Assembly (NCBI GenBank): GCA_049719515.1
Contig: JBNARJ010000011.1
Span: forward strand, 816-64,815
DNA length: 64,000 nt
DNA from: Candidatus Saccharicenans sp.
GTDB lineage: Bacteria > Acidobacteriota > Aminicenantia > Aminicenantales > Saccharicenantaceae
Direction: 5' to 3'
In this document: positions 20,587 to 63,734 of the stretch, one piece after another
Layout: each line of letters begins with the position of its first letter
Numbering within the stretch: position 1 is the first letter of the stretch
Notes under the pieces: generated by a model
Databases searched by the model: none
What the model saw: the letters and a program-made list of their open reading frames with translations, nothing else
What the model was told of the DNA's origin: nothing
Made by a program: the position numbers and the translations under genes

Positions 20587-20601
20587 TTTGCCCTCCTTTC
20601 C

Positions 20602-21858: not shown

Positions 21859-21872
21859 TTTACGCCTCCTTT

Positions 21873-22550: not shown

Positions 22551-22551
22551 C

Positions 22552-24248: not shown

Positions 24249-24285
24249 TTTTACCTCCTCTTACTTTTATTTAGAGACCGTATGT

Positions 24286-24654: not shown

Positions 24655-24664
24655 TTCTTCCTCC

Positions 24665-37596: not shown

Positions 37597-37866
37597 TTTC
37601 TGCTTACATTTTACCTTAATTTTCGTTTTTTAATCAAACTTTATCCTGCCTTCCTTTAATTTTTGAGCCATCTGCCTCTGTGCGGTTTTCAAAAAATAAA
37701 TCCCTTGTTTGCCATAGTTCTGCTTTATCTGACGAAATAAAAATATTTTTATTCCCAAAAAATTAATTTGAAAAAACATTAAAAAACTTTAAAATTCGCT
37801 TGCATATTGGTATATATTGGTATAAAATGGACTACGAAAATATATAAATTTCTAACGAGGTATATT

Positions 37867-38856: not shown

Positions 38857-38910
38857 ATTTAAGCCAGTTTCACGCGGTCTTCAGTCATTTAAGTAACTAA
38901 GGAAAGGTTT

Positions 38911-39429
38911 ATGAGCAGTAAAGCAGGAGAAGTAAAAATGGAAAAAGACACTATCATCCTTGGAGTGATAGGAGCCGATTGCCATTCGGTGGGCAATAAA
39001 ATTCTGGAATTGTTTTTTAGCTCTGAGGGTTTTAGGGTGGTTAACCTGGGAGTAATGGTTTCTCAACAGGAGTTTATCAACGCGGCCATTGAGACCAATG
39101 CCAAAGCCATCCTGGTTTCCTCTCTGTATGGTCATGGGGAAATTGATTGCCAGGGGTTCCGCGAGTTGTGTCTGGAGAAAGGGCTGGACCCGATAATCCT
39201 TTATGTGGGCGGAAACCTGGTGGTGGGGAAAACGCCTTTTTCGGTGGTGGAAGAAAAATTTAAGAAGATGGGCTTTGACCGTGTCTTCCCGCCTGATGTG
39301 GACCTGAAGAAGGTGGCTGAACTGCTCAGGCAGGATATCAGGGAAAAATTCGGTCAGTTGGCTTCCGACAATAAAAGCCAGCTTCTCACTGAAGAAAAAA
39401 CCGATGGCGGTCAGCCGAACAGGCCTTGA
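38911..39429 (+). CDS. glmS: Glutamate mutase sigma (S) subunit, B12-binding (alternative start at 38938 MEKDTI...)
   Basis: GVIGADCHSVGNKIL carries the DxHxxG cobalamin-binding motif and matches GlmS/MamA N-termini. About 160 aa. Confidence 0.85.
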   Translation: MSSKAGEVKMEKDTIILGVIGADCHSVGNKILELFFSSEGFRVVNLGVMVSQQEFINAAIETNAKAILVSSLYGHGEIDCQGFRELCLEKGLDPIILYVGGNLVVGKTPFSVVEEKFKKMGFDRVFPPDVDLKKVAELLRQDIREKFGQLASDNKSQLLTEEKTDGGQPNRP

Positions 39430-40835: not shown

Positions 40836-40847
40836 GAGGTTAGGAAG

Positions 40848-42296
40848 ATGATTAAGAACCAAAAAATAGACCTTAAAGAATTCCTGGAAATCAGAAAAGA
40901 AGTTTTGCAAACCTGGCCTACCGGCCAGAATGTTTCAATTGAAGAAGGAATAAGATACCACCGGACGATTCCGGAAGAAAAGAATTTCTCGTTAGCCATG
41001 CTCCGGGCGAAAAAGAGTCGAAAAACCCTTCTTCAGCCAAGAGCCGGTGTGGCACTGATTGATGACCACATCAAGCTGCTGCGCTACTTAGAAACAGAAG
41101 GACAGGCTGACCTTCTGCCGACGACTATTGACGCCTATACCAGACAAAACAGGTATGAAGAGGCAGAAAAAGGTATTGAAAAATCAAAGCAAGCCGGCAC
41201 CTCCATGCTCAACGGGTTCCCGGCGGTCAATTATGGTGTCGAAGGCTGCCGGAGGGTGGTGGAAAGCGTCATCCGTCCAGTTCAGGTCAGGCACGGCACG
41301 CCGGATGCCCGGCTGCTGGCCGAGATAACCCTGGCGGCCGGTTTTACCAGCTTTGAAGGTGGCGGCATCTCTTACAACATTCCTTATGCCAAGCGAGTTC
41401 CGGTGGAGAAATCTCTTAGAGACTGGCAGTATGTCGACCGTTTGGTCGGTATATATGAAGAAAACGGAGTAAGAATAAACCGAGAGCCATTCGGACCTCT
41501 TACCGGCACTTTGGTGCCGCCGTGCATTTCTATCGCGGTGGGAATCATAGAGGGGCTGTTGGCAATTAAACAGGGGGTAAAGTCAATTACCTTGGGATAC
41601 GGGCAGGGCGGCAACATCATTCAGGATGTGGCCGCCATTGCTGCCCTTCGAGAGCTGGCTGAAGAATATTTTCGCCAGGAAGGCTATGATGACATTGAAC
41701 TAACCACTGTCTTTCACCAGTGGATGGGCGGTTTCCCGGAGGATGAAGCCAAAGCCTTTTCGGTAATTGCCCTGGGAGCCATCGTGGCCAAACTTTCGGG
41801 CGCAGAAAAAGTTATCGTCAAGTCGCCGCATGAAGCCATGGGTATTCCGACCAAAGAAGCCAATGCCCAGGGGCTGCGAGCCACCCGCCAGGCTATCAGC
41901 ATGGTAGAAGACCAGGTGATTTTTAAGCCCGAAGACCTTAAAACCGAAGTCGACTTAATAAAGGAAGAGGTCCGTTGTCTGATGAATAAAGTTTACGAAC
42001 TCGGCCATGGTGATGTGGCCGCAGGCACAGTGGCTGCTTTTGAAGCGGGTGTGCTGGACATTCCTTTTGCGCCTTCCATCTACAACCACGGGAAAATAAT
42101 CCCGATGCGTGATAACGAAGGCTTTATCAGGATTTTCAGCAAAGGGAATTTGCCGCTCAGCGAGGAAATCATGGCTTACCATCGGCAGAGGCTGCAGGAA
42201 AGAGCCAGAGCGGAAGGGCGGGCTATCAGCTTTGAGATGGTCACTGACGATATTTATGCCATCAGCAAAGGAAAATTAGTTGGGAGGCCCAGATGA
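40848..42296 (+). CDS. glmE: Glutamate mutase epsilon (E) subunit (methylaspartate mutase)
   Basis: 482 aa. The size and TIM-barrel-like pattern match GlmE. Its position follows glmL. Confidence 0.8.
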
Positions 42297-43546
42297 AAAT
42301 AAAAAGAGTTCTGTTTGTTCCTGGGAAATCGGCTTTCTTTTTTGATGACCAGAAAGCCATTAAAAAAGGAGCCAGGCCGAACGGTTTTGTCTACGAGGGC
42401 AAAGCCGTGACCAAAGGGTTTGAAAGGATCAGAATAGCCGGTGAAAGCATTTCCGTCATCCTGGAGCTGGAAGACGGACAATTGGCCGTGGGTGATTGCG
42501 CCGCTGTGCAGTATTCCGGGGTTGGTGGCCGTGACCCGCTTTTTCTGGCCGAACACTACCTGCCCTTCATGGAAAGGCACCTCAAACCACTGCTTGAGGG
42601 GCTGGAAGTAACTTCCTTCCGTCAGCTGGCTGACCGCTTTGAAAACATGAAATTTGAGGGAAAGAGGCTTCATACGGCCATCAGATACGGTTTATCGCAG
42701 GCTCTGCTGGACGCCCGGGCTAAAGCCGAAAAAAAGCTTAAGACGGAAGTCATCTGCGAAGAATATAACCTGCCGATTATCCCCGAGCGGATAAAAATTT
42801 TCGGGCAGTCCGGGGATGACCGTTACACCAATGCGGATAAGATGATCCTCAAACAGGTCGATGCTCTGCCTCACGCGCTGATCAACAACGTTGAGGACAA
42901 GCTGGGTCGCCAGGGAGAAAAATTGAGAGAATACATTCGCTGGCTGGTTGCCCGGATAATCAAGCTGAGAACCAGAGAAGATTATCGGCCTGATATTCAT
43001 ATTGATGTCTATGGAACAATAGGCCTCATATTTGATGGAGACACGGAACGGGTGGCGGATTATCTGGCTTCCCTGGAAAAAGAAGCGGACGGGTTTAATC
43101 TCTACATAGAAGGCCCGGTCGATATGGAAGAAAAATACCGGCAGATGGAAGCCCTGGCCAGGATTACCAGGAAGCTGGAATCGATGGGGTCGAGGGTAAA
43201 AGTGGTGGCTGACGAACACTGCAATACTCTGGAAGATATCAAGGAATTTACCGATGCCCGGGCCTGCCACATGATTCAGATAAAAACGCCCGACCTGGGT
43301 GGCATTCAGAATGTGGCGGAAGCCAATCTCTACTGTAAAGCTCATGGAATAGAAGCCTATCAGGGCGGTACCTGCAATGAAACTGACATTTCAGCCCAGG
43401 CCTGCGTGCACGTGGCCATGGCCACCAGACCGGACCGCATGCTGGCCAAACCGGGGATGGGCTTTGACGAAGGTTTCATGATTGTGAATAATGAAATGGA
43501 ACGAATCATCCGGGTGCTGAAGATGAAATACGCGGAGAATAAATAA
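42293..43546 (+). CDS. mal: 3-Methylaspartate ammonia-lyase (beta-methylaspartase, enolase superfamily)
   Basis: 417 aa. An N-terminal [20 protein letters not shown]...-type beginning and enolase-superfamily layout. ATGA overlap with glmE. Confidence 0.8.
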
Positions 43547-44929
43547 ATGAAAAAAGCCAGTCAGAAAAAAATAAAACTTCCACCCTTTAAAATTCTTTCG
43601 ACCACGGCCATCCTGGGCTACGGCTTCCCGGAGAGCTCTTTTCGCCGCGGCCTGAGCCGGAAGCCAGATTTAATCGCGGCGGATGCTGGCTCGACCGACC
43701 CGGGACCGTATTATCTCGGAGCCGGGAAATCCTTTACCAACCGCACCGCGGTTAAAAGAGATTTGCGGCTGATGATAAAGGCCGGGGTAGAAAAAAATAT
43801 CCCGGTTATCATCGGTACGGCGGGCGGTTCAGGGGCCAGGCCACACCTGGAATGGTGTTTGGAAATTGTGCGAGAAATTGCCAGAGAAGAAAAGCTTCAT
43901 TTCAAACTGGGTATTGCCCATGCCGATGTGGATAAAAAGACCGTAAAAGAGGCTCTCAAGAAAGGGAACATCAAACCGCTGCCCTTCGTGCCCGAGCTCA
44001 CGCCAGAAGTTGTTGACCAGAGTGAAAACATCGTGGCCCAAATGGGGGTGGAGCCGTTCATCAAGTTGCTGGAACAGGGTTGCCAGGTCATTGTGGCCGG
44101 TCGGTCTTATGACCCGGCTGTTTTTGCCGCTCTGCCCATTGCCCGCGGTTATGACTCCGGGCTGGCACTTCACCTGGGAAAGATTCTGGAATGCGCGGCC
44201 ATCGCCGCCACTCCAGGTTCCGGTTCTGATTGCGCTCTGGGGATTCTGGAAGAAGATTCTTTTGTCTTGGAAGCCCTTTCCCCGGAAAGAAAATTCACCC
44301 CACAATCAGCGGCCGCTCATACCCTTTATGAGAAATCAGACCCTTACGAGCTTCCTGGCCCGGGTGGCGTCATAAACTTAAGAGAATGCAGCTTTGAGGA
44401 TATAGGCCATGGCCGGGTTCGGGTCAGGGGGAGCAGGTTCATTCCGACTGAACAGTACTGGGTTAAACTCGAAGGGGTCAGGCTCATCGGCCACAGGTCA
44501 ATCAGCGTGGCTGGAGTTCGTGACCCAATCATGATTTCAAAGATTGATGAAATTTTGAAAGCGGTGGAAGCCAGGTCCAGAGAAATAATGGGGCAGGAAG
44601 CCGAGCAGGGCCGGATATTTTTCCACGTTTACGGAAAAAACGGGGTGATGGGGCAGCTGGAGCCGGTTAAGAAGATTCAGTCGCATGAACTTGGCCTGGT
44701 GATTGAGGCCATCGCCCCCACCCAGGAAGCGGCCGATGCTTTGCTGGCTGTGACCCGTTCGGCTCTTTTACATTACGGATATGAAGGACGGATAGCTACG
44801 GCCGGCAACCTGGCCTTTCCTTTTTCGCCTTCCGATGTGGCCATGGGCAAAGTATTTGAGTTTTCAATCTATCACCTCATGAAGCTTGAAGACCCGGCCC
44901 TGTTTAAAACTGAAGTGGAAAAAATTTAG
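43547..44929 (+). CDS. DUF1446 (AtuA-like) family protein, tentative
   Basis: 460 aa. Assigned by recall of the AtuA-like N-terminal region. It is followed by a small ORF that resembles the DUF4387 partner. Not verified by search. Confidence 0.4.
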   Translation: MKKASQKKIKLPPFKILSTTAILGYGFPESSFRRGLSRKPDLIAADAGSTDPGPYYLGAGKSFTNRTAVKRDLRLMIKAGVEKNIPVIIGTAGGSGARPHLEWCLEIVREIAREEKLHFKLGIAHADVDKKTVKEALKKGNIKPLPFVPELTPEVVDQSENIVAQMGVEPFIKLLEQGCQVIVAGRSYDPAVFAALPIARGYDSGLALHLGKILECAAIAATPGSGSDCALGILEEDSFVLEALSPERKFTPQSAAAHTLYEKSDPYELPGPGGVINLRECSFEDIGHGRVRVRGSRFIPTEQYWVKLEGVRLIGHRSISVAGVRDPIMISKIDEILKAVEARSREIMGQEAEQGRIFFHVYGKNGVMGQLEPVKKIQSHELGLVIEAIAPTQEAADALLAVTRSALLHYGYEGRIATAGNLAFPFSPSDVAMGKVFEFSIYHLMKLEDPALFKTEVEKI

Positions 44930-44939
44930 GGGGACATAG

Positions 44940-45287
44940 ATGGCCCAAACAAAAAGAAAAATCAGTAAAGTTAGTAAAAAAAGAAGTATCCTGGAAGTGG
45001 CCAGGGTTATCCGTTCAAAAAACTCTGGACCTTTTGAGCTGACTCTTGATATCATGTTCAAGGACAAGAAATATTTTGATTACTTCCGTAAGAAAAAGGT
45101 CATTACGGCCAAAAAGATAGCCAGGCTCTACGGGATTCCGGAAACCGAGGTGCTTAAGATTGTTTACTTTGAACCGAGCCAGGCCATCAAAGTGACCATA
45201 AAAAGGAAAATACCATCGGGCTCACCCGGCGACACGGATATTTACGGAGCTCAGCAGCATGCGCCTTTGCTGGACCTGACCTTTTAA
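44940..45287 (+). CDS. DUF4387-like small protein (partner of DUF1446), tentative
   Basis: 115 aa. GPFELTLDIMFKD ... YGAQQHAPL pattern as recalled for DUF4387. Combined length with the preceding ORF is about that of fused AtuA proteins. Confidence 0.4.
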   Translation: MAQTKRKISKVSKKRSILEVARVIRSKNSGPFELTLDIMFKDKKYFDYFRKKKVITAKKIARLYGIPETEVLKIVYFEPSQAIKVTIKRKIPSGSPGDTDIYGAQQHAPLLDLTF

Positions 45288-45312
45288 GCCCCGGCGGGCT
45301 TGAGGATAGATA

Positions 45313-46263
45313 ATGGACCCAAAGCAGCTGTCCAGAATTGACACGCTGATTTATGCCGTTTATTACGCGCCCCGCGGACGCTACCGTCTGTATATGGTGG
45401 CCAGTGAAATCGCGCGGCGGTATCTTACGCCCACCGATTATCTGATAGGTATCATAGGGGAAGAAGGAGCCGGCAAATCAACCCTGATTCGTGGCCTTTT
45501 CCCCGGGCTGGAGTTGACCAATGAGGATGAGGGAGTAAACGTCCGGCGGGCACCAATATATTCTTTTTCGCCGGATGATTATTTTTCTGGCCACACTTTT
45601 CACATTGATGTCAGGCACGAGCTGGCCTTTACGCAAAAGTACAAGATTAGGGAAGCAATCAGACGCGCCATAGAGCACAAGCGTCGGGTGGTGGTAGAAC
45701 ATTTTGACCTGATTTATGATGTGCTGGGCTGCAATGCCCAGGTGTTGATTGGCATCGGGGAAGAAATCATCGTGGCCCGGCCGACCGTGTTTGGCCCTTT
45801 TCCCGAGAACATAAAAACAATTGTGGATAGAACCATCAAGTACCGCCTGATGGCGCATTCGGCCGAGGATATAACCACCTATATCCTGGAAAGAGATTAT
45901 CAATACCGTTCTTCGTCGCCTCTGATTCACTCCGATATCAGGCATGGCTTTGTCATAAATTTCAGCGAAAGGCCGGATATCGACCTGGATGAACTCGAAG
46001 AAAAAGTGAAGAAAATCATTGCCGCAGACTTGCCGATAGTCAGCGTGCCCGGTGAAGACGCCATTAAAGTAGGAGACATCAAAATTTACTGCACGGGGCC
46101 GAGGACGCATGTGGACCGCACCGGACAGATAGAGAATTTTCGGCTGCTGAAAGAGTTCAGGCTGAATCCGCTGACCAATGAATTCATGCTCATCGGCATG
46201 GTCGGCCAGAAAACCATCGCCGGTTTTGAGGATATCATCGAGTACATGGACATCGAAGACTGA
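45313..46263 (+). CDS. Hypothetical P-loop NTPase / kinase-like protein
   Basis: Walker A-like IGIIGEEGAGKSTLI. No G-protein G4 (NKxD) motif, so not a MeaB-type chaperone. Confidence 0.4.
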   Translation: MDPKQLSRIDTLIYAVYYAPRGRYRLYMVASEIARRYLTPTDYLIGIIGEEGAGKSTLIRGLFPGLELTNEDEGVNVRRAPIYSFSPDDYFSGHTFHIDVRHELAFTQKYKIREAIRRAIEHKRRVVVEHFDLIYDVLGCNAQVLIGIGEEIIVARPTVFGPFPENIKTIVDRTIKYRLMAHSAEDITTYILERDYQYRSSSPLIHSDIRHGFVINFSERPDIDLDELEEKVKKIIAADLPIVSVPGEDAIKVGDIKIYCTGPRTHVDRTGQIENFRLLKEFRLNPLTNEFMLIGMVGQKTIAGFEDIIEYMDIED

Positions 46264-46289
46264 ATCTTAATTTAGGGGGAGAAGAAACC

Positions 46290-47888
46290 ATGAGATTTAA
46301 ATACGTCCCGCTTTTGCCCAGAGAAAAGCAAAAAATCAGTTACGAAAAATTGACTGACCAGTTTGTAAAAGAAATAAAATGGCGCGGCCGGACCTTCCTC
46401 GAAGTAAAACCCGAGGGGCTGCGGCTTCTGGCCAGAGAAGCTTTGGCCCGGGTAAACTTCTATTTTAGAACTTCTCACCTTGAAAACCTGGCCTCGATTA
46501 TAGACGACCCGGAGGCCTCAGAAAACGATAAGTACGTGGCGGCCATGCTAATAAAAAATGCCATAATTTCGGCTGAAGGGCAGCTGCCGCTCTGCCAGGA
46601 TACGGGTACGGCCAACATCATCGGTTACAAGGGAGAAAATGTGCTGACCGGAGTTGATGATGTTAAATACCTGAGCTGGGGAGTTTTTGACGCCTATACC
46701 GGTCTGAACCTCAGAGCCTCCCAGAATGCACCGCTTTCCATGCTGGAGGAAAAAAATACCGGAAACAACCTGCCGGCTCAGGTGGAGATTTTCAGCACGA
46801 AAGGCAATGAATATCACTTTTACATCATGGCCAAGGGCGGGGGCTCTTCCAACAAGACGGCTCTTTACCAGGAGAACAAATCTCTGTTAAAAGACGATAA
46901 AACGCTGTATGAATTTTTGAAGGACAGGATAAAAGCCATCGGGGTGGCTGCCTGCCCGCCTTACCGGATTGCCGTGGTGGTTGGCGGTCTCTCGCCGGAA
47001 ATGAACCTCAAGACGGTGAAGCTGGCTTCGGCCGGTTTTCTTGACGGCCTGGTCACCAGGCCAACCGGTGAACCGCACGGGTACCGTGATTTGGAGTGGG
47101 AAAAGAAAGTGATGAAAATTGCCAGAGAAACAGGTCTGGGCGCGCAGTTTGGTGGAGTGGCCCTGGCGGTAGAAGCAAGAGTGATCAGGCTTCCCAGGCA
47201 TGGAGGGTCTCTGCCGGTGGGTATTGGGGTAAGCTGCAACGCTGATAGAAACATAAGGGCAAAAATAAACCGGTATGGTCTTTTCCTCGAAAAGCTCGAC
47301 CGGAACCCAAAGCGCTTCCTGGAAAAGGTGGAAAGCTTGAAGCTGGAAAAGGTGCCGGAGGTCGATTTGGACCAGGGCCTGGAGGGGCTGGTGGAGGAGC
47401 TTTCTAAATATCCGGTCGGCAGCCGGGTGAGCCTCACCGGGACGCTGATCGTGGCGCGGGATATGGCTCATCTGAGGTTGAAGAAAATGCTTGATGAGGG
47501 CAGGCCGCTGCCTGAGTACTTTAAAAAATATGCTGTTTATTATGCCGGGCCGGCCAGGGCACCAAAGGGCCTGCCCACCGGAAGTTTTGGGCCGACTTCA
47601 GCTCAGAGAATGGATAATTACGTTGAAGAATTCATGAAGGCCGGGGCTTCAAGAGTAATGCTGGCCAAGGGCAATCGGTCGGAGAAAGTGGTTGAGGCCT
47701 GCCGAAGGTATCGTGGCTTTTACCTGGGCACCATTGGAGGAGCAGCCGCCCTGGTGGCCAAGGAGCACATAATTTCCAGTGAGCTTCTTGATTTTGCCGA
47801 TTTGGGTATGGAAGCCATCAGGAAAATTGTGGTGAAAAACCTGCCGGCTTTTATCATTATTGATGATAAAGGGAATAAGCTGTATTAG
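46290..47888 (+). CDS. Class I (Fe-S) fumarate hydratase family, fused alpha-beta form; candidate mesaconase
   Basis: CQDTGTA motif of the Fe-S hydro-lyase alpha domain and a C-terminal beta-domain in one 532 aa polypeptide. It closes the methylaspartate operon. Confidence 0.75.
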   Translation: MRFKYVPLLPREKQKISYEKLTDQFVKEIKWRGRTFLEVKPEGLRLLAREALARVNFYFRTSHLENLASIIDDPEASENDKYVAAMLIKNAIISAEGQLPLCQDTGTANIIGYKGENVLTGVDDVKYLSWGVFDAYTGLNLRASQNAPLSMLEEKNTGNNLPAQVEIFSTKGNEYHFYIMAKGGGSSNKTALYQENKSLLKDDKTLYEFLKDRIKAIGVAACPPYRIAVVVGGLSPEMNLKTVKLASAGFLDGLVTRPTGEPHGYRDLEWEKKVMKIARETGLGAQFGGVALAVEARVIRLPRHGGSLPVGIGVSCNADRNIRAKINRYGLFLEKLDRNPKRFLEKVESLKLEKVPEVDLDQGLEGLVEELSKYPVGSRVSLTGTLIVARDMAHLRLKKMLDEGRPLPEYFKKYAVYYAGPARAPKGLPTGSFGPTSAQRMDNYVEEFMKAGASRVMLAKGNRSEKVVEACRRYRGFYLGTIGGAAALVAKEHIISSELLDFADLGMEAIRKIVVKNLPAFIIIDDKGNKLY

Positions 47889-48338: not shown

Positions 48339-48364
48339 TAATGTTGATAGTGAGGAGATTAAAT

Positions 48365-50413
48365 ATGCGCAAACCGCCAGTTTACCTGCTTTTGTTAATT
48401 TCCCTGACTTTTGTGACCATCGTGGCTGCGGCGGCCGGGGAAAAACACTATATTTTGTCCGGAGGAGAAAGAGATTTCTATTTCGCTCATATAAGTTATC
48501 TGCCGGCTGACCTTGGGAGCAAAAACCCGGAGGTCTTGAGAAGCGGGATAGCAGGAGCCGAGGAAGTACAGCTTAATCTTCCTCTTGTCCCGGGCGATGT
48601 TCTCGTCACCTACGACCGTCCGTGTGAAGTTCAATTTGACTCGGGAACGATAGTTAGGCTGGATGTTGATTCCAGGTTGAAAATAGAAACCGTCCTGGCT
48701 CAGACCTTAAGTTCTGAGGAAAAACTTTCCAGTCTTTTTCTGGAAAAGGGGCGGCTGTATTTGATGTATACAGCCTACAATTCATGGGAAATTTTTCAGC
48801 TGGTAACACCCGCGGCCGCCCTGAAGATGAAAAATCATACCGTTCTGGTGGTGGCCCAGGATGAACCGGGTCCGACTAAGATAGCCGTTCTTCAGGGGAG
48901 TGCCAAGGTTCTTTTTGGCCCGGACGAGAAAAACCTCAGGACCCAGGCTTTAAAAAAAGGCCAGAACTTGATTATCAGCGGAGCTTCTCAAACAGAAAAA
49001 GTTTCTGTCATCAGCGAGTTCGGTGAGTTTGTGGCCTGGAATGAAAAGATAAACAGGGAATTTGTGGAGCTCCATAAAGGCCTGACTCCACTCCCCAAAC
49101 CAGTTCAAAAATTGCCCTCAGCTGTTTTTTACTTTGCTCAGTATTATGGCAACAAATACGGAGAGTGGCTGTGGGATGACCTCTATGGTTATGTCTGGCG
49201 GCCTTTTTACAATGATATCTATCCCTGGGGCAACTGGTCCCCTTATTTTTATGGTCGCTGGTCTTATGTAAACGGAGAGCTTTTCTGGGTGCCGGAGGAG
49301 CCGTGGGGCTGGGTGCCTTATCATTTGGGAATCTGGCAGTGGGACAAGAAGCTCGGCTGGGTTTGGATACCGGGTTCGGTTTTTGCCCCGGCTTGGGTTG
49401 ACTGGTGTTTTTATTACGGTTACTTCAGCTGGCGGCCCTGGACGCTGAGTGATTTCCTGTTTTATGCCTATTACGGTCTGGGAACCGGTGATTATTACTG
49501 GAACAATTACTGGACAGGCTGGTCGACCGGTTCCTATTTTGCCGGAAACCAGATGAATAATTTCCTCAAAAAGGTCAGCAAGGACCAGCTCAAGAAGAGA
49601 AGCAGTGTGATTCCTTCAGAATTCAGGCAAGTATTGAATACCATGGCGCAGGCCGTAGAAAAGAATGACAGGACAGTGCTGGAAAGAATAGAGGGTAAAT
49701 CCCCGGCGGTGATAATTAGAAGGGAAGATATAGCCAGGACAGACCTCAGGTCGAGGATGATTACCTCTCCGGATAAAATTCAGGAACAGTTGAAAAATCA
49801 ACCTTCCGCTCCTTCAGCGGTTAAAGAAATTGCCGGTACAGGGTCTGCCAAAAACCCGGCCGAGGAGTTTTTAAAATGGCGGCAGGCCCAAGCCGTTTCT
49901 GAGAATAATGCCGGGGAAGCTGTTCGCCGAGTGGTAGCAGTGATGGACCGGAAACAGGTCCAGAGTCAGAGAAGCGCTGCTAATTTTCCTTCTCCAAGGA
50001 ATAATCCGGCAGAATATCTTAATGCCCCGGAAGCCAGGCGGGCCGAAAATGCCCGCAAGGCCGGCGGACCCGTTTTTAATCAGAGGCTCAGGTTCCGCGA
50101 CTGGAACCCTGATGTCCGGGTGGCCAGAGAAGCGGGTTTCAGCCTGGTGTATGATAGCTCTCGGAATGCCATTGTGGTTCCTGAACTGGGGGTAAGTTCG
50201 CGGGAAGCAAAAGAATGGAGGGTGAGGCTGACGCCCTCGGGTCTAATTCAGCATGTGCCTTCAGGTTGGGCGGATAACAGCAGCAGTTATATTTCATCTG
50301 ATTCTTCCTCCCCAGTGCCAACGGTTTCTCCCAAGACGATGTCTTCCGGCAGCTCAAATTCTGGACACAGCAGCGGTGGCAATTCCTCCAATGCCGGACG
50401 AGAAAAACACTGA
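48365..50413 (+). CDS. Secreted protein: FecR-like domain plus Trp/Tyr/Gly-rich repeat region plus Ser-rich C-terminal tail
   Basis: A signal peptide after MRKPP (start moved from 48341 to the second Met, which has an SD). A central region with more than 20 Trp (WGWVPYHLGIWQWDKKLGWVWIPG...). A Ser/Gly-rich tail. Confidence 0.5.
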   Translation: MRKPPVYLLLLISLTFVTIVAAAAGEKHYILSGGERDFYFAHISYLPADLGSKNPEVLRSGIAGAEEVQLNLPLVPGDVLVTYDRPCEVQFDSGTIVRLDVDSRLKIETVLAQTLSSEEKLSSLFLEKGRLYLMYTAYNSWEIFQLVTPAAALKMKNHTVLVVAQDEPGPTKIAVLQGSAKVLFGPDEKNLRTQALKKGQNLIISGASQTEKVSVISEFGEFVAWNEKINREFVELHKGLTPLPKPVQKLPSAVFYFAQYYGNKYGEWLWDDLYGYVWRPFYNDIYPWGNWSPYFYGRWSYVNGELFWVPEEPWGWVPYHLGIWQWDKKLGWVWIPGSVFAPAWVDWCFYYGYFSWRPWTLSDFLFYAYYGLGTGDYYWNNYWTGWSTGSYFAGNQMNNFLKKVSKDQLKKRSSVIPSEFRQVLNTMAQAVEKNDRTVLERIEGKSPAVIIRREDIARTDLRSRMITSPDKIQEQLKNQPSAPSAVKEIAGTGSAKNPAEEFLKWRQAQAVSENNAGEAVRRVVAVMDRKQVQSQRSAANFPSPRNNPAEYLNAPEARRAENARKAGGPVFNQRLRFRDWNPDVRVAREAGFSLVYDSSRNAIVVPELGVSSREAKEWRVRLTPSGLIQHVPSGWADNSSSYISSDSSSPVPTVSPKTMSSGSSNSGHSSGGNSSNAGREKH

Positions 50414-51572: not shown

Positions 51573-53948
51573 TTAATATGCCAGTTTTTTGTTTCGCGTT
51601 GGGCGGTAACTCCAGCCTTCTCCGTCCCAGAATCTTATTTTTTCTTTAAGAATTCTGAGTTCAGTAAGAGCCTGAGGGGGCAAAATCCCCTGAACCATGA
51701 ACTCTTTGATTTTCTCTATGGTCATGTCAGTCGGGCGGGAAAAAAGCGGTTGAAGATGGTAATCAAAATTATATATAATTTCATAAGGATTTTCCTTTGA
51801 AAATTCAGTCACGGACGCCTCTATCTTTTTATCTGTTCTGAGCAATTCAAGCTGACGGGTGTAATTTCTTAAGGCCATAACCTGGTTTAAGGTGGTTCGA
51901 GGGAACAGGATATAATATTCCTGTGTTCCGGGCGGGAGGCCTTGAAACTGGAATTCCGGGTTGCCGCTGGAGGGGGAGCATCCTTCGACCTTTCGGGGGT
52001 CAAGCACCAGCAGGCAGGCGCACTGGAAATCATTGTTGGTTCCGCCGAGGATAATTTCATTCCAGCCATCTTCGTCAATATCCTCGACCAGGCAGGCATC
52101 TCGGTTGAGATGACCGGCCTGCCAGTATTCTCCAATTATCCGTCCTGATGAGTTTAGAAGGGTGATTTGAACCGGATACCAGGTCGCATGGTTGGCCACC
52201 ACCAGGATGAATTTTTCCTCTGAGTTATTTTTGAGCTTCCAGATGCCCAGGTTCCGCACAATGTAGTTGTTGGAGAATTCGTCATTCAGTGTTTTAATCC
52301 TTTTACCCGGCTCAAATGACCAGCGCAGCTGACCATTTGGCTCAAAAAGTAATATTTCGGAAGTTCGCTTCTCCTGCTCTTTATAGTTTACGCCCACCAG
52401 TATTTCTTTTTTTCCGTCTCCTTCAAGGTCCATCAATTTCTGGGTCAGGCTTTCTGTTTCGGCTGAGCTTTTAAGCTGGTAGGCCCAGAGGACTTCTTTT
52501 TTTTCACCTATGGCCAGGAGTTTGTCATGATGCAGCTCCATGGCCACCACCGGCCTGGATGTCTTGAATGGAAAATAATTAGACCGGCTGCCAAACATGA
52601 ATAAAAAGAACAGACCGGTCAAAAACAGGACTGAAAAAAATGTTTTGGCCACGAGCTTTCTTTTAGTCTTTATAAGCCAGATTATTTTGGAAGTGGAGTT
52701 TCTCTGGATTAAACGCTCATCTTCGATAATGTCCATCAGACTTTTTGCCCCGATGAGCTCCAGCCGGCGGTGGGTGTGCCCGGTCAGAAACTGATAAAGA
52801 ATGAGACTGGCTTCCTTCATGTTTTCTTCAGGTATAACTAAGTAACGAATCCCTGAGTAAAAAGCTGCTTTAATCTTCATCTCCAGGCTTTCTGGTTCGA
52901 TGCGCAAAACCTGGCCATTCAGGTCGACCCGACCGGTAAAAGCTGCCTGCCGGCTTATCGATAAAGAGTGTGGTGCTTTGAAAGTCCTGAGCTTTTGAGC
53001 GAGGGCCAGCAGGGTGACCGGCAGCCCGAGGCTCTGCCCGGGATAAATGAACTTTTTATCAGGAAAAGAAAAAATTATAAAAAATGGGGGAAGTTCCAGC
53101 CTGAAGGCCCTGTGAAGGACATAATCGGCGGCTTCGAGACCGTCAGCTAAGGAGGCAGAAAGTGCTTCCTCCAAAGAAGACATCAAATTAGAAAACTTAA
53201 AGATGTTTTGACCGTCGGCCACCGCCATTTTTCGGCCATGAGCTGAAAGGGAAATGATTCTGGCTTTTTCCGGAGGGGAAAAAGTTTCTCTTTTTTCGAT
53301 CAGTGAACAGTAGAGGCTGTCTGAGGAAAAACCGCGGTACTTCTCCCATTTTTCAAAGATAAAATCTTTATCAGCCAGGATTTCTTCAGGCAATCCGGCT
53401 GAATTAAAAAATTCAACACACATTTCCAGGTTGGATAGCCGGGTGTTTTTGATCCTGAGAATCTGCTCGTAAGATAACGGACAAACAGCCGTCAGCAGGT
53501 CCTTAGCTTCTGGCACCGGGCCGCCTTTTAGCAGCCTGTTTTTAAAAACAAGGGCCTGACAGGCGCGGTCGAGTTCTCCCAAATAAAAATATTGAAGAGC
53601 CAGATAAAAGAGCAGGTTGGTCAGCCCCTCTCGGATGAGATTTTGGTCGAGCTTATCGGGGAATTTTCGGTAGAAATTGACTGCAGACTCAAAAATCGTC
53701 AGCAATTCATCTGGTGGAACAGATTCTGGCTGCATGCTGGCCAGCAGATAGAAAAACACGCCAGCGTACTGAAGATAAAATGAATAGACCAGGTCTTCGT
53801 TTAATCCTCTGGTTTCGTTTATGAACTGACAGATGACACGGACGCGGGAGGCGTCATCGGCCGCCAGAGTTATTTCGGATATGCTTCTGCGAAATAATTC
53901 CTCCAGTTGCAGGGGAGAAAGCTCGGGCGAGGAAGATGTGTTATCCAT
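51573..53948 (-). CDS. Large membrane protein: N-terminal unknown domain, Lon-like (S16) Ser-Lys protease domain, single TM helix, C-terminal periplasmic FG-GAP/beta-propeller-like domain
   Basis: PGQSLGLPVTLLAL...AAFTGRVDLNGQVLRIEPESLEMKIKAAFYSGIRYLVIPEEN aligns with Lon GPSAG...[28 protein letters not shown].EN, with the catalytic Ser and Lys conserved. The TM helix is FFSVLFLTGLFFLFMFG. The C-terminal region has DIDEDGWNEIILGG, which is FG-GAP-like. Confidence 0.55.
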   Translation of the reverse strand: MDNTSSSPELSPLQLEELFRRSISEITLAADDASRVRVICQFINETRGLNEDLVYSFYLQYAGVFFYLLASMQPESVPPDELLTIFESAVNFYRKFPDKLDQNLIREGLTNLLFYLALQYFYLGELDRACQALVFKNRLLKGGPVPEAKDLLTAVCPLSYEQILRIKNTRLSNLEMCVEFFNSAGLPEEILADKDFIFEKWEKYRGFSSDSLYCSLIEKRETFSPPEKARIISLSAHGRKMAVADGQNIFKFSNLMSSLEEALSASLADGLEAADYVLHRAFRLELPPFFIIFSFPDKKFIYPGQSLGLPVTLLALAQKLRTFKAPHSLSISRQAAFTGRVDLNGQVLRIEPESLEMKIKAAFYSGIRYLVIPEENMKEASLILYQFLTGHTHRRLELIGAKSLMDIIEDERLIQRNSTSKIIWLIKTKRKLVAKTFFSVLFLTGLFFLFMFGSRSNYFPFKTSRPVVAMELHHDKLLAIGEKKEVLWAYQLKSSAETESLTQKLMDLEGDGKKEILVGVNYKEQEKRTSEILLFEPNGQLRWSFEPGKRIKTLNDEFSNNYIVRNLGIWKLKNNSEEKFILVVANHATWYPVQITLLNSSGRIIGEYWQAGHLNRDACLVEDIDEDGWNEIILGGTNNDFQCACLLVLDPRKVEGCSPSSGNPEFQFQGLPPGTQEYYILFPRTTLNQVMALRNYTRQLELLRTDKKIEASVTEFSKENPYEIIYNFDYHLQPLFSRPTDMTIEKIKEFMVQGILPPQALTELRILKEKIRFWDGEGWSYRPTRNKKLAY

Positions 53949-54636
53949 AGATGTTAATTTGAACCTTCTCAGAATTTATGAACCTGGCCGGAACCTCAAA
54001 AAGGGCCATATTTTTAAAGGACGTGGCTATCAGGGGTTCTTCCCCCTCTTTAACCAAAACCATTTTTTTCAGTTTCAGTGCGGAGTTTGGGTTCAGGAAC
54101 TTGACCTTGATGGTCAGGTCTCGTTCCTGGCTGAATATTTCAACTTCGAGGGCTGATTCTTTAAAGCTTTCTATGCACCAGGCCTGTTTGAGAAAGGCAG
54201 TTTGCTTTGTTTCGGGCGGAGAGAATTCAAAAATGGCTGCCGGGGGCATGAGCTTTATTGACGGATTAGATAATTCCAGGTCCTCAAGCGAAACCAGCCC
54301 GTGAGAATCGGTCAGGTAGCACCGGGCTTGGTCCCTGGGGCAGATAAACACATACTGGTAACCGGATTTTTCTCGATGCAACAGGTGAGCCTGCAGCTGA
54401 TGATGGATCGGATCATTTATGATTCTTAAAAGATACTGTCCGTCAGATGAAGCCAGCGAGATCTTTTCTGAGTAATAATCGGCCGCAGATAAATGACTGA
54501 ATCCTATCAGGTTGGGAAAAGGAGGAGTTTCAGACCTGACTTTATGCAGGCAAACATTGAACAGAGGCGGTCCCTCAGTTTTATTTTCTCCACAACAAGA
54601 AATTATTTTTTCAATTAATTCTTTCCTGGTTTTCAT
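53941..54636 (-). CDS. Hypothetical protein (middle gene of three-gene operon)
   Basis: 231 aa. Translationally coupled to neighbours (8 nt and 4 nt overlaps). No motif recognised. Confidence 0.45.
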   Translation of the reverse strand: MKTRKELIEKIISCCGENKTEGPPLFNVCLHKVRSETPPFPNLIGFSHLSAADYYSEKISLASSDGQYLLRIINDPIHHQLQAHLLHREKSGYQYVFICPRDQARCYLTDSHGLVSLEDLELSNPSIKLMPPAAIFEFSPPETKQTAFLKQAWCIESFKESALEVEIFSQERDLTIKVKFLNPNSALKLKKMVLVKEGEEPLIATSFKNMALFEVPARFINSEKVQINIYG

Positions 54637-55679
54637 TTACCCGCCTGTGCACACTGATAGTTGATTTGTTCCAACTTTTGTTTCAAGAATTCCCTTGAAT
54701 TTTTTACCAGGTATTCAAAAATCATTCTCTTGTTCTGCCGGTAGTCGTCAGGAGTAATTTCTGGAAGATGACGTTTAAGGTAATTATAGAGAGATTTTTC
54801 CTGGCCACCGTCCTGCCAATCTCGGAAGAGGTCATTAAGAGCCAGCAGCCAGGCTTCCTTTTCTTTGTGGTTTATTCTTTTCTTCTGGACGTATTTTCCG
54901 ACCAGCCGTTTGTTATAATTCATAAGTTCTTCAAACCACTGCTGTAAATTTTTGTTGACATCGTAAACCGGGTATCTGTCCGGCGAATAAAAAGCGGCTC
55001 CGGCTTCGACCATTAGATAATATTTCTGTACGGAAACAAAAAGGTCATAAATCCCGGAAAGTGACATTTCTAAGCCGGCGCCATTATTTTCGAGTATTTC
55101 AGCCAGCCGTCGGAAAAATTTGGGAATCTGTAACCCGCCCAGCCGGTTTTTTAGACATAGGCTCAGCAAACCATCTATCTCATTTGAATAAATTACCGAG
55201 GGCTCGCCTTTCGGCCGGAAGGTTATTTGTGGATTGTTGGACCTGTTCTTTATCTTGAACTGGCTGGTCTTTTTCAAAGCGTAAAGGATTTCTCTTTTTA
55301 TTTTATTTCTTTCCGGTGTTATTTCATTGCTCAGGAAATAGTAGGTTTGTTTCAGTCTGCGTAAAAGTACGCTTCGCAGATAACGCTGGAAGTCCTCTTC
55401 ATTTGAGGCCAGAAATTTTTCCACTGTTTTCCAGTCAAACAGGCGTTCCAGCACCGGGTATCTCCCCTTACTGTTCTTGATGAACAGATTGGAGATGGCC
55501 AGATAGGCGATGTCCCTTGGCTCGTAATTGGCCAGGTACAGATGATACCCCCGATTTTTCTTGATAACGGGAAGTAACTCGTCAACCATGGCTGTAATCA
55601 GGTCTCGCAGGTCTTTTTCCGAATACTGATTGTTAATGACCAGAAGTAGCTTGAGCAAAAGGTTTTTCTGGAGGGCCAT
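54633..55679 (-). CDS. Hypothetical protein (first gene of three-gene operon), faint sigma-70 region-2-like segment
   Basis: 348 aa. DIAYLAISNLFIKNSK is reminiscent of sigma region 2.2-2.3, but this is weak. No HTH was recognised with confidence. Confidence 0.4.
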   Translation of the reverse strand: MALQKNLLLKLLLVINNQYSEKDLRDLITAMVDELLPVIKKNRGYHLYLANYEPRDIAYLAISNLFIKNSKGRYPVLERLFDWKTVEKFLASNEEDFQRYLRSVLLRRLKQTYYFLSNEITPERNKIKREILYALKKTSQFKIKNRSNNPQITFRPKGEPSVIYSNEIDGLLSLCLKNRLGGLQIPKFFRRLAEILENNGAGLEMSLSGIYDLFVSVQKYYLMVEAGAAFYSPDRYPVYDVNKNLQQWFEELMNYNKRLVGKYVQKKRINHKEKEAWLLALNDLFRDWQDGGQEKSLYNYLKRHLPEITPDDYRQNKRMIFEYLVKNSREFLKQKLEQINYQCAQAGK

Positions 55680-61149: not shown

Positions 61150-62328
61150 TTAAAAAGCGGTTATCAGGCCCAGTCCCAGTCGGAAATGAGCACCCTGTTC
61201 CCCCTTGAAAACGTAGGTGCCTTCAATCGTGGCTCTTATATTTCTCCTTAGCAGATATCCATAATGTAGGCCAAATGAAGAGTAGCGCAATTCCGGCTGG
61301 TCGGAATCAACCCAGTTCAGCAGGGCGGTTGTGTACCAGCGGGAATCGTCTCCTTTTGGCATGAAAATTAATTCAGCAAAACCACCCCTCGTTTTAATTT
61401 TCTCCGGAGTCAGAACCCAGAAAAACGGGTTGTCGTCCCTTCTTTCGATATACTGAAGATTGAGTTCGAGCCTGGGAATACCCCAGGTGAAATCGGCGCC
61501 CAGCATCCAGAGATTATCATCAGCCTGACCCTGTCTTTCCCGACCCAGGTAACCGAAAGCACCCAGGCGGATTGATTCACTCAGGTCCTGAGAAACCCGC
61601 AGCAGAAAATTCTTGTATTTATCATAATCAAAAGTGTCCTGGTCATCAGCCGGTCGAAGCCCAAGACCGTTGATCACTTCAAGGCACAGGTCTGGCCCGT
61701 TGCGGAAGCTGTAAGTGAACATCAGCCCTCGGTCATAAGTCAGGTCGGCATGAGCTAACCCGACTTTTGTGCTGTAAATCTTGTAATCTTCGTACATCAG
61801 GCGCAGCTCGCGTTTGAACAGCGGGTCGGAGACCTGGAACTGACCGACAATAATATCAAATTCTTGATTAAAAAGGTTATTGAACATGAGAAAGGCGTCT
61901 TCCAGGCCGGCCACCTCGCCTTTTTCCGTGAAGAAAAAGTAGAAGTAGTAAGAAACGTGTTTGGTTATTTCACCGCCGGACAGCAGCTTGATCAGAAAGG
62001 GAGCGGCAAAGTCCAGTTTTTTGTTGTTACTGTTGTTCAAGGAAAGAAAACCTTCAAAGCGAATGGCTATCGGCAGTTCGCGCAGCAGGGAAAGCAGACT
62101 GTCCCCGGTGTCGATGTTGTAGCGGGGAGTTTCCTTATCTTTGATCACATAACCGTTGTTCATAAAGTCATCGCCATAGGGTTTAAGCTTGGGAAAAGGT
62201 GTGTGGCAGACCTTGCAGCTCATGCTGTACTTGCGGGCGAAAGCCGGGATGGAAAGAGCCTCAGAAGTCAGGACAGCCAGCAGCACTAAAGACAGGATGA
62301 TGATTTTATAATTTTTTCCCATCGCCAC
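61150..62328 (-). CDS. Cyc2-like fused monoheme cytochrome c / outer-membrane beta-barrel (porin-cytochrome)
   Basis: A signal peptide, then a single CKVCH heme-binding motif about 12 aa into the mature protein. The remaining roughly 340 aa have alternating beta-strand character and end in ...GLGLITAF (terminal Phe, OMP signature). Confidence 0.55.
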   Translation of the reverse strand: MAMGKNYKIIILSLVLLAVLTSEALSIPAFARKYSMSCKVCHTPFPKLKPYGDDFMNNGYVIKDKETPRYNIDTGDSLLSLLRELPIAIRFEGFLSLNNSNNKKLDFAAPFLIKLLSGGEITKHVSYYFYFFFTEKGEVAGLEDAFLMFNNLFNQEFDIIVGQFQVSDPLFKRELRLMYEDYKIYSTKVGLAHADLTYDRGLMFTYSFRNGPDLCLEVINGLGLRPADDQDTFDYDKYKNFLLRVSQDLSESIRLGAFGYLGRERQGQADDNLWMLGADFTWGIPRLELNLQYIERRDDNPFFWVLTPEKIKTRGGFAELIFMPKGDDSRWYTTALLNWVDSDQPELRYSSFGLHYGYLLRRNIRATIEGTYVFKGEQGAHFRLGLGLITAF

Positions 62329-62360
62329 CTCCAGTCTGAGCAGTTAATTTATAAAATTAT

Positions 62361-63734
62361 TCAATCGACTATCTTGATGGTGGTGGAATGCCGGTTGACT
62401 TCAATTATTTCTGATTCATCCGGCGGGACACCCAGGAAATCAGCCACCGGTTTGACCAGTTTCTGATAATTAAGGACAGCCGTGACGGTGAGCGGACCGG
62501 GTGGCAGATCTTCAGGGAGCTGAAAAGTGCAGGTTTCAATCTTTGTTTCCCGGGGACCGATTCGGTAATCAACGCCGAGCGATTTGGTGTTCCACTGCTG
62601 GATGGTCATCCGGCCCTGGGGGTCAAAGTAAGCCATGCGGAAGATGCGGTCGCCAACCGGCAGGCCGTCACGCTGAACCCCCTTAAAATTCGGGTCACCC
62701 AGAGCAATACCCATATCCTGGTAAGCCAGGGTGTCAGCCGCGATGGTGTATTCTTCTCCTTCAAAGCCTTTTTTATCAACCGGCAGGTGATAGACTTTTC
62801 CTTTAGCATCAACCGCTTCAACGTGCATCCAGACAATGCGGTCTTCCACTGACCCGGTCGGAAACTTGTGGCCGGTTTTCTGGTTAAAAAGCACAATGGT
62901 GAATCTGACCCGGTCGCCGGGCGCAGCTTCGTTAACATCAGGATGAACCCGTAATTCAATGGTACCTTTAATCTTGCCCGGGTCGTGCGCCCCGTGGAAA
63001 AGGTGCTGTCGCACGTCGGGATAGGTGTTGCCCATGGAAGCGCTCTTGCCCGGGGCATAGGTCATGTGGCAGTCATGGCATTTTACACCCTGCCTGGCGT
63101 AAGGACCTTCTTTCCACTCCAGGTGGGTGGATTTTACCCACACACCGTAGGGGCTTTTTTCGTTGTGGCAGGTGCCGCAGAATTCAGCCGTGCTGAGGAA
63201 TTCAGATTTAACCATGTTGTGTTCGGGCGAAATTTTCCCTTCCCGCGGCCCGTACTTGTTCTTGCCCGGCTCGGAAATCCAGTTGAAATTGTGAGGCACA
63301 TCGCCGGCAAAACCGGTCACCGTGTGGCAAACTTCGCAGGAAACCGATTCGTTGGCCCGGCTGCCCTTGGCCGGAAGGGGTGGCGGCACATCGCCGGCCA
63401 GGAAGGCAATCGGCGTATGGCAGCCGTTGCAGCCGGCTTTTACTCCGGCCACTACCGGGTCTTTCTCCGCCTGGGGAACAGCCAGCTTGAAATATTCAAT
63501 TTCGTCCCAGTGGTGGGTGTAGGCCTGGGACATCATCGCCTGTTTCCATTGCTGATAGATATCATTGTGGCATTGCAGGCCGCAGAAGGTTGGTGTCTGA
63601 TAATCGCTGTATTTTCTCGTGCCAAGGGCCTCGTCTCCGGCTTTCTGCAGGCTGGACGATGTGACAAAACCGAGAGAAATCGCAGCCGAGATAATAAAAA
63701 TGATTAAAATGAATGTGCCCGCGCGGTTCATCAT
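62361..63734 (-). CDS. Multiheme c-type cytochrome (five CxxCH), N-terminal membrane or signal anchor, C-terminal beta-rich domain
   Basis: CGLQCH, CNGCH, CEVCH, CGTCH and CHDCH. An N-terminal hydrophobic segment (FILIIFIISAAISLGF). 32 bp upstream of the Cyc2-like gene on the same strand. Confidence 0.7.
   Translation of the reverse strand: MMNRAGTFILIIFIISAAISLGFVTSSSLQKAGDEALGTRKYSDYQTPTFCGLQCHNDIYQQWKQAMMSQAYTHHWDEIEYFKLAVPQAEKDPVVAGVKAGCNGCHTPIAFLAGDVPPPLPAKGSRANESVSCEVCHTVTGFAGDVPHNFNWISEPGKNKYGPREGKISPEHNMVKSEFLSTAEFCGTCHNEKSPYGVWVKSTHLEWKEGPYARQGVKCHDCHMTYAPGKSASMGNTYPDVRQHLFHGAHDPGKIKGTIELRVHPDVNEAAPGDRVRFTIVLFNQKTGHKFPTGSVEDRIVWMHVEAVDAKGKVYHLPVDKKGFEGEEYTIAADTLAYQDMGIALGDPNFKGVQRDGLPVGDRIFRMAYFDPQGRMTIQQWNTKSLGVDYRIGPRETKIETCTFQLPEDLPPGPLTVTAVLNYQKLVKPVADFLGVPPDESEIIEVNRHSTTIKIVD

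Follow-up and report, generated by a model that had tools for sequence, protein, structure and literature searches.

The window analysed here is a 64 kb stretch of DNA (64,000 nt; contig JBNARJ010000011.1, positions 816 to 64,815) from a Candidatus Saccharicenans sp., and close to its end it carries two adjacent genes, here called open reading frame (ORF) A and ORF B. ORF A encodes a pentahaem c-type cytochrome that is assigned at sequence level to the PHC / c552 family, and ORF B encodes a protein with the motifs and the predicted fold of Cyc2, a monohaem cytochrome fused to an outer-membrane porin. The genes, and the features recognized within them, are the following.

61150..62322, minus strand: ORF B, Cyc2-family fused monohaem cytochrome-porin (390 aa plus stop codon)
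62361..63734, minus strand: ORF A, PHC / low-potential c552-family pentahaem c-type cytochrome, predicted periplasmic (457 aa from the first ATG)
62328..62332, minus strand: GGAGG ribosome-binding site, 5 nt 5' of the ORF B ATG (read from the sequence)
62251..62322, minus strand: ORF B signal peptide, residues 1–24, predicted cleavage after A22-L23-S24 (sequence inspection)
62185..62253, minus strand: ORF B Cyc2 signature S24-I-P-A-F-A-R-K-Y32, haem site C36-K-V-C-H40 and P44-K-L46 (motif match, Keffer 2021)
61153..62070, minus strand: ORF B predicted 16-strand outer-membrane beta-barrel, residues 85–390, ending in Phe (AlphaFold2 and Foldseek)
63648..63734, minus strand: ORF A signal peptide, about residues 1–29, predicted cleavable (from homologue alignment)
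63567..63584, minus strand: ORF A haem 1 site, non-canonical CX3CH, C51-GLQ-C55-H56 (sequence and homologue alignment)
62985..63584, minus strand: ORF A haem domain, residues 51–250, five haem motifs, candidate distal ligands H74, H172, H244 and H250 (invariant columns)
62364..62972, minus strand: ORF A C-terminal beta-rich immunoglobulin (Ig)-like domain, residues about 255–457 (5ze8 alignment and invariance)

The two genes lie head to tail with ORF A as the upstream member, separated by 38 nt. The original prediction, made from the letters of the window, had placed two same-strand frames between 61150 and 63734 with the cytochrome immediately upstream, and the ORF listing bears this out. The listed start of ORF B is the GTG at 62328; since the GGAGG ribosome-binding site overlaps this codon and homologues are called at 390 aa, the start is probably the ATG at 62322. 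ORF A may begin at its second ATG (63731), which gives 456 aa, because this is the length of its close homologues. Downstream, the neighbour of the pair is a convergent TPR gene that ends at 60895. The 266 nt 5' of ORF A, up to the window end, are non-coding, and relatives show little conservation ahead of ORF A. A promoter and terminator scan gave no more signals than chance expects, and an Rfam search gave no match. A look for further cytochromes beyond the window end had been suggested; in a closely related contig of 1.25 Mb, whose ORF A homologue is 94% identical, there is no further cytochrome within 10 kb on either side of the pair, and the next gene upstream is a divergent GFO/IDH/MocA oxidoreductase. 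In the six frames of the 64 kb, CXXCH occurs in no reading frame of 70 codons or more other than ORF A and ORF B; as they are the only such frames and the motif is invariant in 64 aligned homologues, the pair of haem-motif proteins is not a chance occurrence. Both exact protein sequences are present at NCBI, from Candidatus Saccharicenans sp. metagenome-assembled genomes (MAGs; Aminicenantota), where ORF A (MGB9835976.1) is named ‘NapC/NirT family cytochrome c’ and ORF B (MGB9835977.1) ‘hypothetical protein’. Judged by what is encoded, both names look inadequate.

Cyc2 is defined by the motif AXPXFAR[Q/K][T/Y] upstream of a single CXXCH, a motif called ‘unique to Cyc2’ (Keffer et al. 2021, PMC8406198). 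Further criteria are PXL four residues past the CXXCH, a 16-strand porin of the OprO/OprP kind and no fewer than 365 aa (PMC8406198); the FeGenie length minimum is 375 aa. By eye, the N-terminus of ORF B (MGKNYK, a hydrophobic core of 12 residues, then A-L-S) is a signal peptide with predicted cleavage before I25. Position 24, which is Ala, Ser or Gly in 26 of 26 aligned homologues, coincides with the first ‘A’ of the published AXPXFAR motif (Ser here, Ala in most homologues). The complete motif block reads SIPAFARKY-SMS-CKVCH-TPF-PKL. Its CXXCH (C36-H40) is the only one in the protein, and C36 is predicted mature residue 12, so that the signal peptide and the single haem motif some 12 residues into the mature protein are found where the original prediction had put them, with the CXXCH outside the cleaved segment. 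Over 64 aligned homologues P26, C36, C39, H40 and P44 are invariant and L46 is at least 90% conserved. Full-length relatives share (A/S)-x-P-x-F-A-R-(K/R/Q)-(Y/H)-x3-C-x-x-C-H-x3-P-x-L and an aromatic C-terminus, which in ORF B is the terminal Phe of ...ITAF.

Sequence searches against domain and structure collections place ORF B nowhere: it has no Pfam or NCBIfam match, and the PDB sequence search is without a meaningful match. The AlphaFold2 model of ORF B, computed with 64 diverse homologues as input, has 16 beta strands [predicted local distance difference test (pLDDT): 90.4, predicted template modelling score (pTM): 0.86] and replaces a model on 26 close homologues that reached a pLDDT of 61. 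Foldseek matches the 64-sequence model to the 16-strand porins OmpU, OprP, OprO and OmpF of the PDB with E-values of about 1e-12 to 1e-10 (OprP, 2o4v: 4.7e-12; OprO, 4rjw: 4.4e-11). For Cyc2 of Mariprofundus ferrooxydans PV-1 the reported structural templates are likewise OprO/OprP (PMC8406198). What had been described as an all-beta sequence ending in Phe is thus predicted to be a 16-strand barrel and not a soluble protein. The charged residues of the barrel strands that face the lumen were roughly counted as 16 acidic versus 12 basic, too crude a figure to read ion selectivity from.

Profile–profile comparison (hhalign) of the ORF B subfamily with the Cyc2-motif proteins of a Mariprofundus MAG, Nitrospira, Acidobacteria and others gives a probability of 100% (E-value: 2.6e-45, length of alignment: 337 columns), and because 337 columns align, the homology to other Cyc2 proteins spans the barrel and not the motif alone. 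The family is large, with more than 5000 matches in a database clustered at 90% identity; a profile search finds 2562 clusters (50% identity) at E ≤ 1e-3 and 610 at E ≤ 1e-10. With its signal peptide, single CXXCH, AXPXFAR and PXL motifs, 390 aa and modelled 16-strand barrel, ORF B is by sequence and predicted structure a true member of the Cyc2 family and not merely Cyc2-like, and the Cyc2-type architecture first proposed for it holds by the published motif, length and fold. It resembles Acidithiobacillus ferrooxidans Cyc2, M. ferrooxydans Cyc2PV-1 and Leptospirillum Cyt572 in the signal peptide, the single N-terminal CXXCH and the family motifs, and the family as a whole in the minimum length of 365 aa, the OprO/OprP-like barrel and the full-length profile homology. 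In contrast to these, ORF B belongs to a compact and distinct subfamily (about 365 mature residues, 19–34% identity to other Cyc2-motif proteins) which is found in anaerobic or fermentative lineages not known for iron oxidation.

ORF A carries five haem motifs, and all five sites are invariant in 32 homologues. The original prediction of five CxxCH motifs stands as to the number of haem motifs; four are CXXCH, and the first is the CX3CH. In the haem 1 column the homologues of Aminicenantes and Ignavibacteria have CX3CH, and those of Bacteroidales, Caldithrix and Thermoanaerobaculia have CXXCH. Because the CX3CH is conserved in two lineages and aligned with CXXCH elsewhere, it is, on the evidence of the alignment, a genuine haem site of variant spacing. 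The variant amounts to a lineage-specific insertion of one residue within a haem-attachment motif. Outside the motifs exactly five His residues are invariant across phyla, H74, H172, H244, H250 and H289 (invariance computed on 32 and on 20 cross-phylum homologues), the last of these within the invariant K286-x-G-H289-K-x-P-x-G-S motif of the Ig-like domain. All five haems are probably bis-His ligated, and since five invariant non-motif His fit five bis-His haems, we regard ORF A as a putative electron carrier and not an open-site enzyme.

Compared as a profile with the PDB, ORF A matches Thermochromatium tepidum cytochrome c552 (5ze8, E-value: 8.5e-12) in three stretches over the haem and Ig-like domains. 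Stretches 165–309 and 380–442 align to residues 208–334 and 371–429 of 5ze8, and in the C-terminal alignment GHKFPTG pairs with PHAMPTG. At the level of sequence ORF A is a member of the PHC / c552 family, the Ig-like domain being assigned at the same level. The T. tepidum protein, the subject of Chen et al. 2019, is reportedly water-soluble, and the title of that work calls it low-potential. Homologues of ORF A have AXA-type cleavage sites just ahead of a conserved KAGDxALG block (...LPLTVQA|QNQ, ...VQVHA|QEAP). As the homologues bear cleavable signal peptides and the closest solved relative is reportedly soluble, ORF A is probably periplasmic and soluble, and the membrane anchor first ascribed to the upstream protein is doubtful. 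In all, 2784 homologues of ORF A were found, the best 120 of the 2784 being 75–95% identical to it.

The PHC family groups c552, ExtKL/MccSep, Gsu2801 and the cable-bacteria pentahaem cytochromes sPHC/lPHC (PMC11976967). ORF A and T. tepidum c552 have in common five c-haem sites followed by an Ig-like domain, a GHxxPTG-type motif and a periplasmic signal peptide. They differ in that the lineage of ORF A has CX3CH at haem 1 and that ORF A lacks some 40 residues which c552 has between its haems 3 and 4. The ORF A gene, for its part, is in an operon with a Cyc2 gene. ORF A also has weak Pfam matches to C554, NNT and C7, and matches TIGR03507, TIGR03508 and PF22113 weakly, under their cut-offs. 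The match to PF03264 covers residues 177–227 only, about 50 residues around haems 4–5 (E-value: 2e-8), and it is in this stretch that ORF A is like the NapC/NirT/CymA tetrahaem quinol dehydrogenases. Whereas NapC/NirT proteins are tetrahaem proteins of about 200 aa with an uncleaved anchor, ORF A has 457 aa, a large C-terminal beta domain and homologues with cleavable signal peptides. A NapC/NirT quinol dehydrogenase was rejected as a candidate identity, given five haems, the length of 457 aa and scores of 13.5 versus 310.6 for TIGR02161 and 19.4 versus 134.2 for TIGR03153. Because the public NapC/NirT name rests on a 50-residue local haem-motif match, it looks over-annotated.

To follow the conservation of the pair, a degenerate DNA pattern for FARKY-x3-C-x2-CH was run against a set of genomes with one for each GTDB species. 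The pattern detects only the K-Y variant of the Cyc2 motif and finds at least 120 loci, so the counts describe a sample, namely the matches listed. The Cyc2 motif is encoded at 120 of these 120 matches, and their hosts include Acidobacteriota, Gemmatimonadota, Bacteroidota, Ignavibacteriota, Nitrospirota, Zetaproteobacteria, Planctomycetota and Myxococcota. Average-linkage identity clustering of 95 complete proteins (ORF B of the window and 94 from the loci) delimits the ORF B subfamily: among the matches listed, 40 complete proteins are at least 44% identical to ORF B, and the next best is at most 34% identical. A Mariprofundus Cyc2-motif protein is 20% identical to ORF B.

Of the 40 subfamily members among the matches listed, 36 have an ORF A homologue directly upstream in the same orientation, with a gap to the Cyc2 gene of mostly 0–100 nt and, for full-length copies, E-values below 1e-100. 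The four listed members that lack it are from Gemmatimonadota and Longimicrobiales, and have a small monohaem gene downstream instead. At the 38 listed loci with an ORF A gene, no gene family other than those of ORF A and ORF B is conserved. Carriers of the pair include a Marinilabilia salmonicolor isolate, an Ignavibacterium album MAG, Melioribacteraceae, Caldithrix, Kapabacteria, Thermoanaerobaculia, Aminicenantes and Bacteroidales. Since the pairing is conserved across phyla, it argues for a functional module.

Over the whole sample, 73 of the 120 matches listed have a gene for a c-type cytochrome at most 150 nt away in the same orientation (pentahaem upstream in 38, dihaem downstream in 20, monohaem downstream in 10, others in 5). 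A periplasmic cytochrome is thus the usual companion of a Cyc2 gene, and which one it is depends on the clade. Because other Cyc2 clades carry different adjacent cytochromes, the neighbour looks like an exchangeable redox partner. Known Cyc2 pathways likewise use partners other than the upstream pentahaem cytochrome of ORF B, for example Cyc1, a periplasmic cytochrome c4 (PMC7914226). The genes beside Cyc2 fall into recognizable types: a dihaem gene of about 210–330 aa directly downstream in Acidobacteriaceae, Nitrospira, Gemmatimonadales and a Chloroflexi MAG; a monohaem gene of about 130–155 aa downstream in Gemmatimonadota and Longimicrobiales; and, at a few loci, an upstream dihaem gene of about 350–370 aa (MAGs of Bacteroidota, Krumholzibacteriia and Phycisphaerae).

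A barrel gene that adjoins a periplasmic multihaem gene, and with it the logic of trans-outer-membrane electron transfer, is also found in MtrAB/MtoAB/PioAB, Geobacter Omb-Oma-Omc and ExtHIJKL. The barrels of those systems, however, have more strands (26 in the Mtr/Mto/Pio type) and are haem-free, and in the Mtr/Mto/Pio type a decahaem cytochrome runs through the pore, whereas the barrel modelled for ORF B has 16 strands, too narrow for a multihaem protein, and the protein has its own haem site. An MtrAB-like complex was rejected as a description of the pair: the barrel is too small and has its own haem site, the partner has 5 haems, and ORF A scores 11.8 versus 192 with the DmsE/MtrA model TIGR03508.

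The candidate outer-membrane/periplasm electron conduit of the original prediction gains support from the Cyc2 criteria and from the cross-phylum pairing, and we consider it rather probable that ORF A and ORF B are a self-contained two-gene cassette moving electrons across the outer membrane, with outward flow favoured. Family membership, fold and gene pairing are the results on which this proposal builds; haem attachment, docking, substrate and the direction of flow are what we infer. ORF B would be exported, its signal peptide cut after Ser24 and one haem c attached at C36/C39 with H40 as proximal ligand. Residues 85–390 would enter the outer membrane as a 16-strand porin barrel, with the haem segment of 60 residues located at, or within, its periplasmic mouth. 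ORF A, exported to the periplasm and probably soluble there, with five haems and its C-terminal Ig-like domain, would dock on the periplasmic face of Cyc2 and so wire the single haem to periplasmic or inner-membrane redox enzymes. Its putative role as the periplasmic partner is suggested by synteny and by homology to a soluble pentahaem cytochrome. The characterized family suggests, by analogy, that ORF B would be a haem-bearing outer-membrane pore that exchanges electrons with small soluble species, and homology likewise points to a metal or extracellular redox function of the pair. The extracellular reactant would be small and soluble enough for a 16-strand pore; by analogy with characterized Cyc2 it may be an Fe2+/Fe3+ species. 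Cyc2PV-1 reacts with Fe2+ and its haem has a potential of +208 mV (Keffer 2021, PMC8406198).

For the direction of flow we lean towards outward, as an outlet for an anaerobe, because ORF A belongs to the low-potential c552 type and has five invariant distal His. Bis-His haems usually have a low potential. The lean also reflects the carriers of the cassette, which are anaerobic fermenters or known Fe(III) reducers and not Fe(II) oxidisers: we know of no cassette-carrying lineage that is an iron oxidiser and, to our knowledge, Aminicenantes, Ignavibacteria, Bacteroidales, Marinilabilia and Caldithrix have no demonstrated Fe(II) oxidiser. It draws, too, on FeGenie, which lists cluster 3 Cyc2, encoded by iron reducers, as ‘possible iron reduction’. 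A more specific version is offered tentatively, as possible but doubtful: the compact Cyc2 subfamily with its pentahaem PHC would run Cyc2 ‘in reverse’, as an outlet for reducing equivalents to soluble extracellular acceptors, for instance chelated Fe(III), humic quinones or polysulfide, that would serve anaerobic fermenters and facultative respirers; Aminicenantes, Ignavibacteria, Bacteroidales and Calditrichota are among the carriers. The Tat-exported Isp-type [NiFe] hydrogenase encoded in the same window is a possible low-potential periplasmic electron donor.

Several points weigh against the outward-flowing cassette. The hydrogenase is 38 kb from the pair and is hence circumstantial, and the cassette is without an inner-membrane component that would link it to the quinone pool or cytoplasm. 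No His or Met beyond the CXXCH is conserved in the ORF B family (64 sequences), so that conservation points to no sixth haem ligand. The signal-peptide assignments for both proteins are heuristic and made by eye. ORF A is 57–89% identical across phyla, versus 44–70% for ORF B, and conservation this strong could mean that ORF A is no simple carrier but an enzyme or an obligate oligomer. Finally, all three Cyc2 proteins assayed to date, one per phylogenetic cluster, are Fe(II) oxidases (Keffer 2021, PMC8406198).

The last of these points favours a classical Cyc2 iron oxidase, in which dissolved Fe2+ is oxidised in the pore at the ORF B haem and ORF A hands the electrons on inward to a terminal oxidase or reductase, be it for energy or to detoxify iron. 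Aminicenantes have indeed been proposed as iron oxidisers on account of cyc2, Cyc2 homologues having been reported there via FeGenie (PMC7005843; PMC7914226). We nevertheless judge inward flow from iron to be unlikely here. Transfer from the Cyc2 haem (about +200 mV) to a low-potential carrier would be uphill, and ORF A, with its five invariant distal His, is akin to a low-potential cytochrome. No oxidase or nitrate reductase was found in the window or beside the cassette, the subfamily shares only about 20% identity with the Mariprofundus Cyc2-motif protein, and the lineages that carry the cassette, named above, speak against it as well.

The strong conservation of ORF A along its whole length would also suit a catalytic periplasmic reductase of the MccSep/ExtKL kind, for which ORF B would be mainly a channel for the substrate, e.g. 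polysulfide. ORF A shares the architecture of pentahaem cap and Ig-like domain with these proteins, and its match to the NCBIfam ExtKL model NF040886 is significant, though weak (46.1 bits, E-value: 2.5e-12); Geobacter extKL is clustered with a porin gene (PMC11976967), and the literature holds no known route for polysulfide through the outer membrane to MccSep. ExtKL/MccSep is a polysulfide reductase whose activity needs selenocysteine (Sec) and a haem-ligating Cys (bioRxiv 10.1101/2025.11.18.688581). ORF A, unlike MccSep, is without the catalytic Sec/Cys pair and without the haem-2 Cys ligand: there is no conserved Cys outside its haem motifs (C402 is F/Y/L in most homologues) and no in-frame TGA. 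The ExtKL score is well under the cut-off of 250, and ORF A was rejected as a MccSep/ExtKL-type polysulfide reductase. More generally, an open haem site is not obvious beside five invariant distal His, and the invariant haem site on the porin would go unexplained, which makes a reductase with its substrate channel improbable. That ORF B is an ordinary porin, its CXXCH without haem and its cytochrome neighbour incidental, would suit a protein without Pfam or NCBIfam match that NCBI calls hypothetical, but is very improbable given a CXXCH and flanking motif that are invariant in 64 homologues and present at no fewer than 120 loci in many phyla, the haem bound by the same motif in M. ferrooxydans PV-1 Cyc2 (PMC8406198) and the cytochrome neighbour in nine-tenths (36/40) of the subfamily members listed.

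Elsewhere in the window, the hydrogenase mentioned above is encoded by a [NiFe]-hydrogenase operon with the Isp-type order hynS-isp1-isp2-hynL (17806–23706, minus strand). Its genes are as follows.

22552–23706, minus strand: hydrogenase small subunit with a twin-arginine (Tat) signal, SRRDFMK, and a C-terminal anchor
21873–22550, minus strand: polytopic membrane protein, 225 aa, without Pfam match
20602–21858, minus strand: CCG/4Fe-4S HdrD-like protein
18510–20345, minus strand: hydrogenase large subunit
17806–18333, minus strand: HycI-type protease

The hydrogenase is periplasm-facing, and Isp-type hydrogenases are linked to sulfur metabolism in other bacteria. Beside it, in 23802–25141 and 16146–17243 of the minus strand, are a GcvH-like lipoyl carrier, two DsrE/DsrF-like sulfur-relay proteins and a lipoate-protein ligase. 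This set is reminiscent of the accessory sets of sulfur-oxidising sHdr/LbpA systems and would be unexpected in a fermenter. A complete-looking methylaspartate pathway cluster for glutamate fermentation (37807–47888, plus strand) comprises a GntR regulator, a B12-binding small subunit, MutL, glutamate mutase E, methylaspartate ammonia-lyase, an AtuA-like protein and a class I fumarate-hydratase-like protein that is the probable mesaconase. A 690-aa protein with FecR and DUF6600 domains is encoded at 48341–50413 (plus strand). Three consecutive ORFs of 791, 231 and 348 aa follow at 51573–55679 (minus strand); Pfam gives no match for those of 791 and 348 aa. The equivalent position in the related contig (L001, 18040–21371) holds ORFs of 787, 232 and 343 aa, none with a recorded Pfam match, the likeness being by length alone.

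No gene is used more widely than cyc2 as a marker of microbial iron oxidation, and the role of Cyc2 outside iron oxidisers is an acknowledged open question (Keffer 2021, PMC8406198; FeGenie). Our limited literature search found no description of the compact Cyc2 subfamily or of its near-obligate pairing with a PHC-type pentahaem cytochrome, and nothing on Saccharicenans cytochromes, Melioribacter respiratory omics or these taxa in the Keffer 2021 supplements; the conserved pairing of Cyc2 with a pentahaem cytochrome appears to be undescribed until now. A well-delimited Cyc2 subfamily here takes the form of a fixed two-gene cassette in several phyla of mostly anaerobic heterotrophs. The cassette gives a testable hypothesis on the partner of Cyc2 and on the direction in which it works, for which the Marinilabilia salmonicolor isolate, and possibly cultured Ignavibacterium album, provide cultured handles. 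Two public annotations are corrected, the ‘hypothetical protein’ of ORF B and the ‘NapC/NirT family’ of ORF A. Automatic ‘iron oxidation’ calls for Aminicenantes and their relatives may be wrong, and if Cyc2 does run in reverse in this clade, the ‘iron oxidation’ calls that cyc2 triggers in anoxic metagenomes would be mis-assigned for it.

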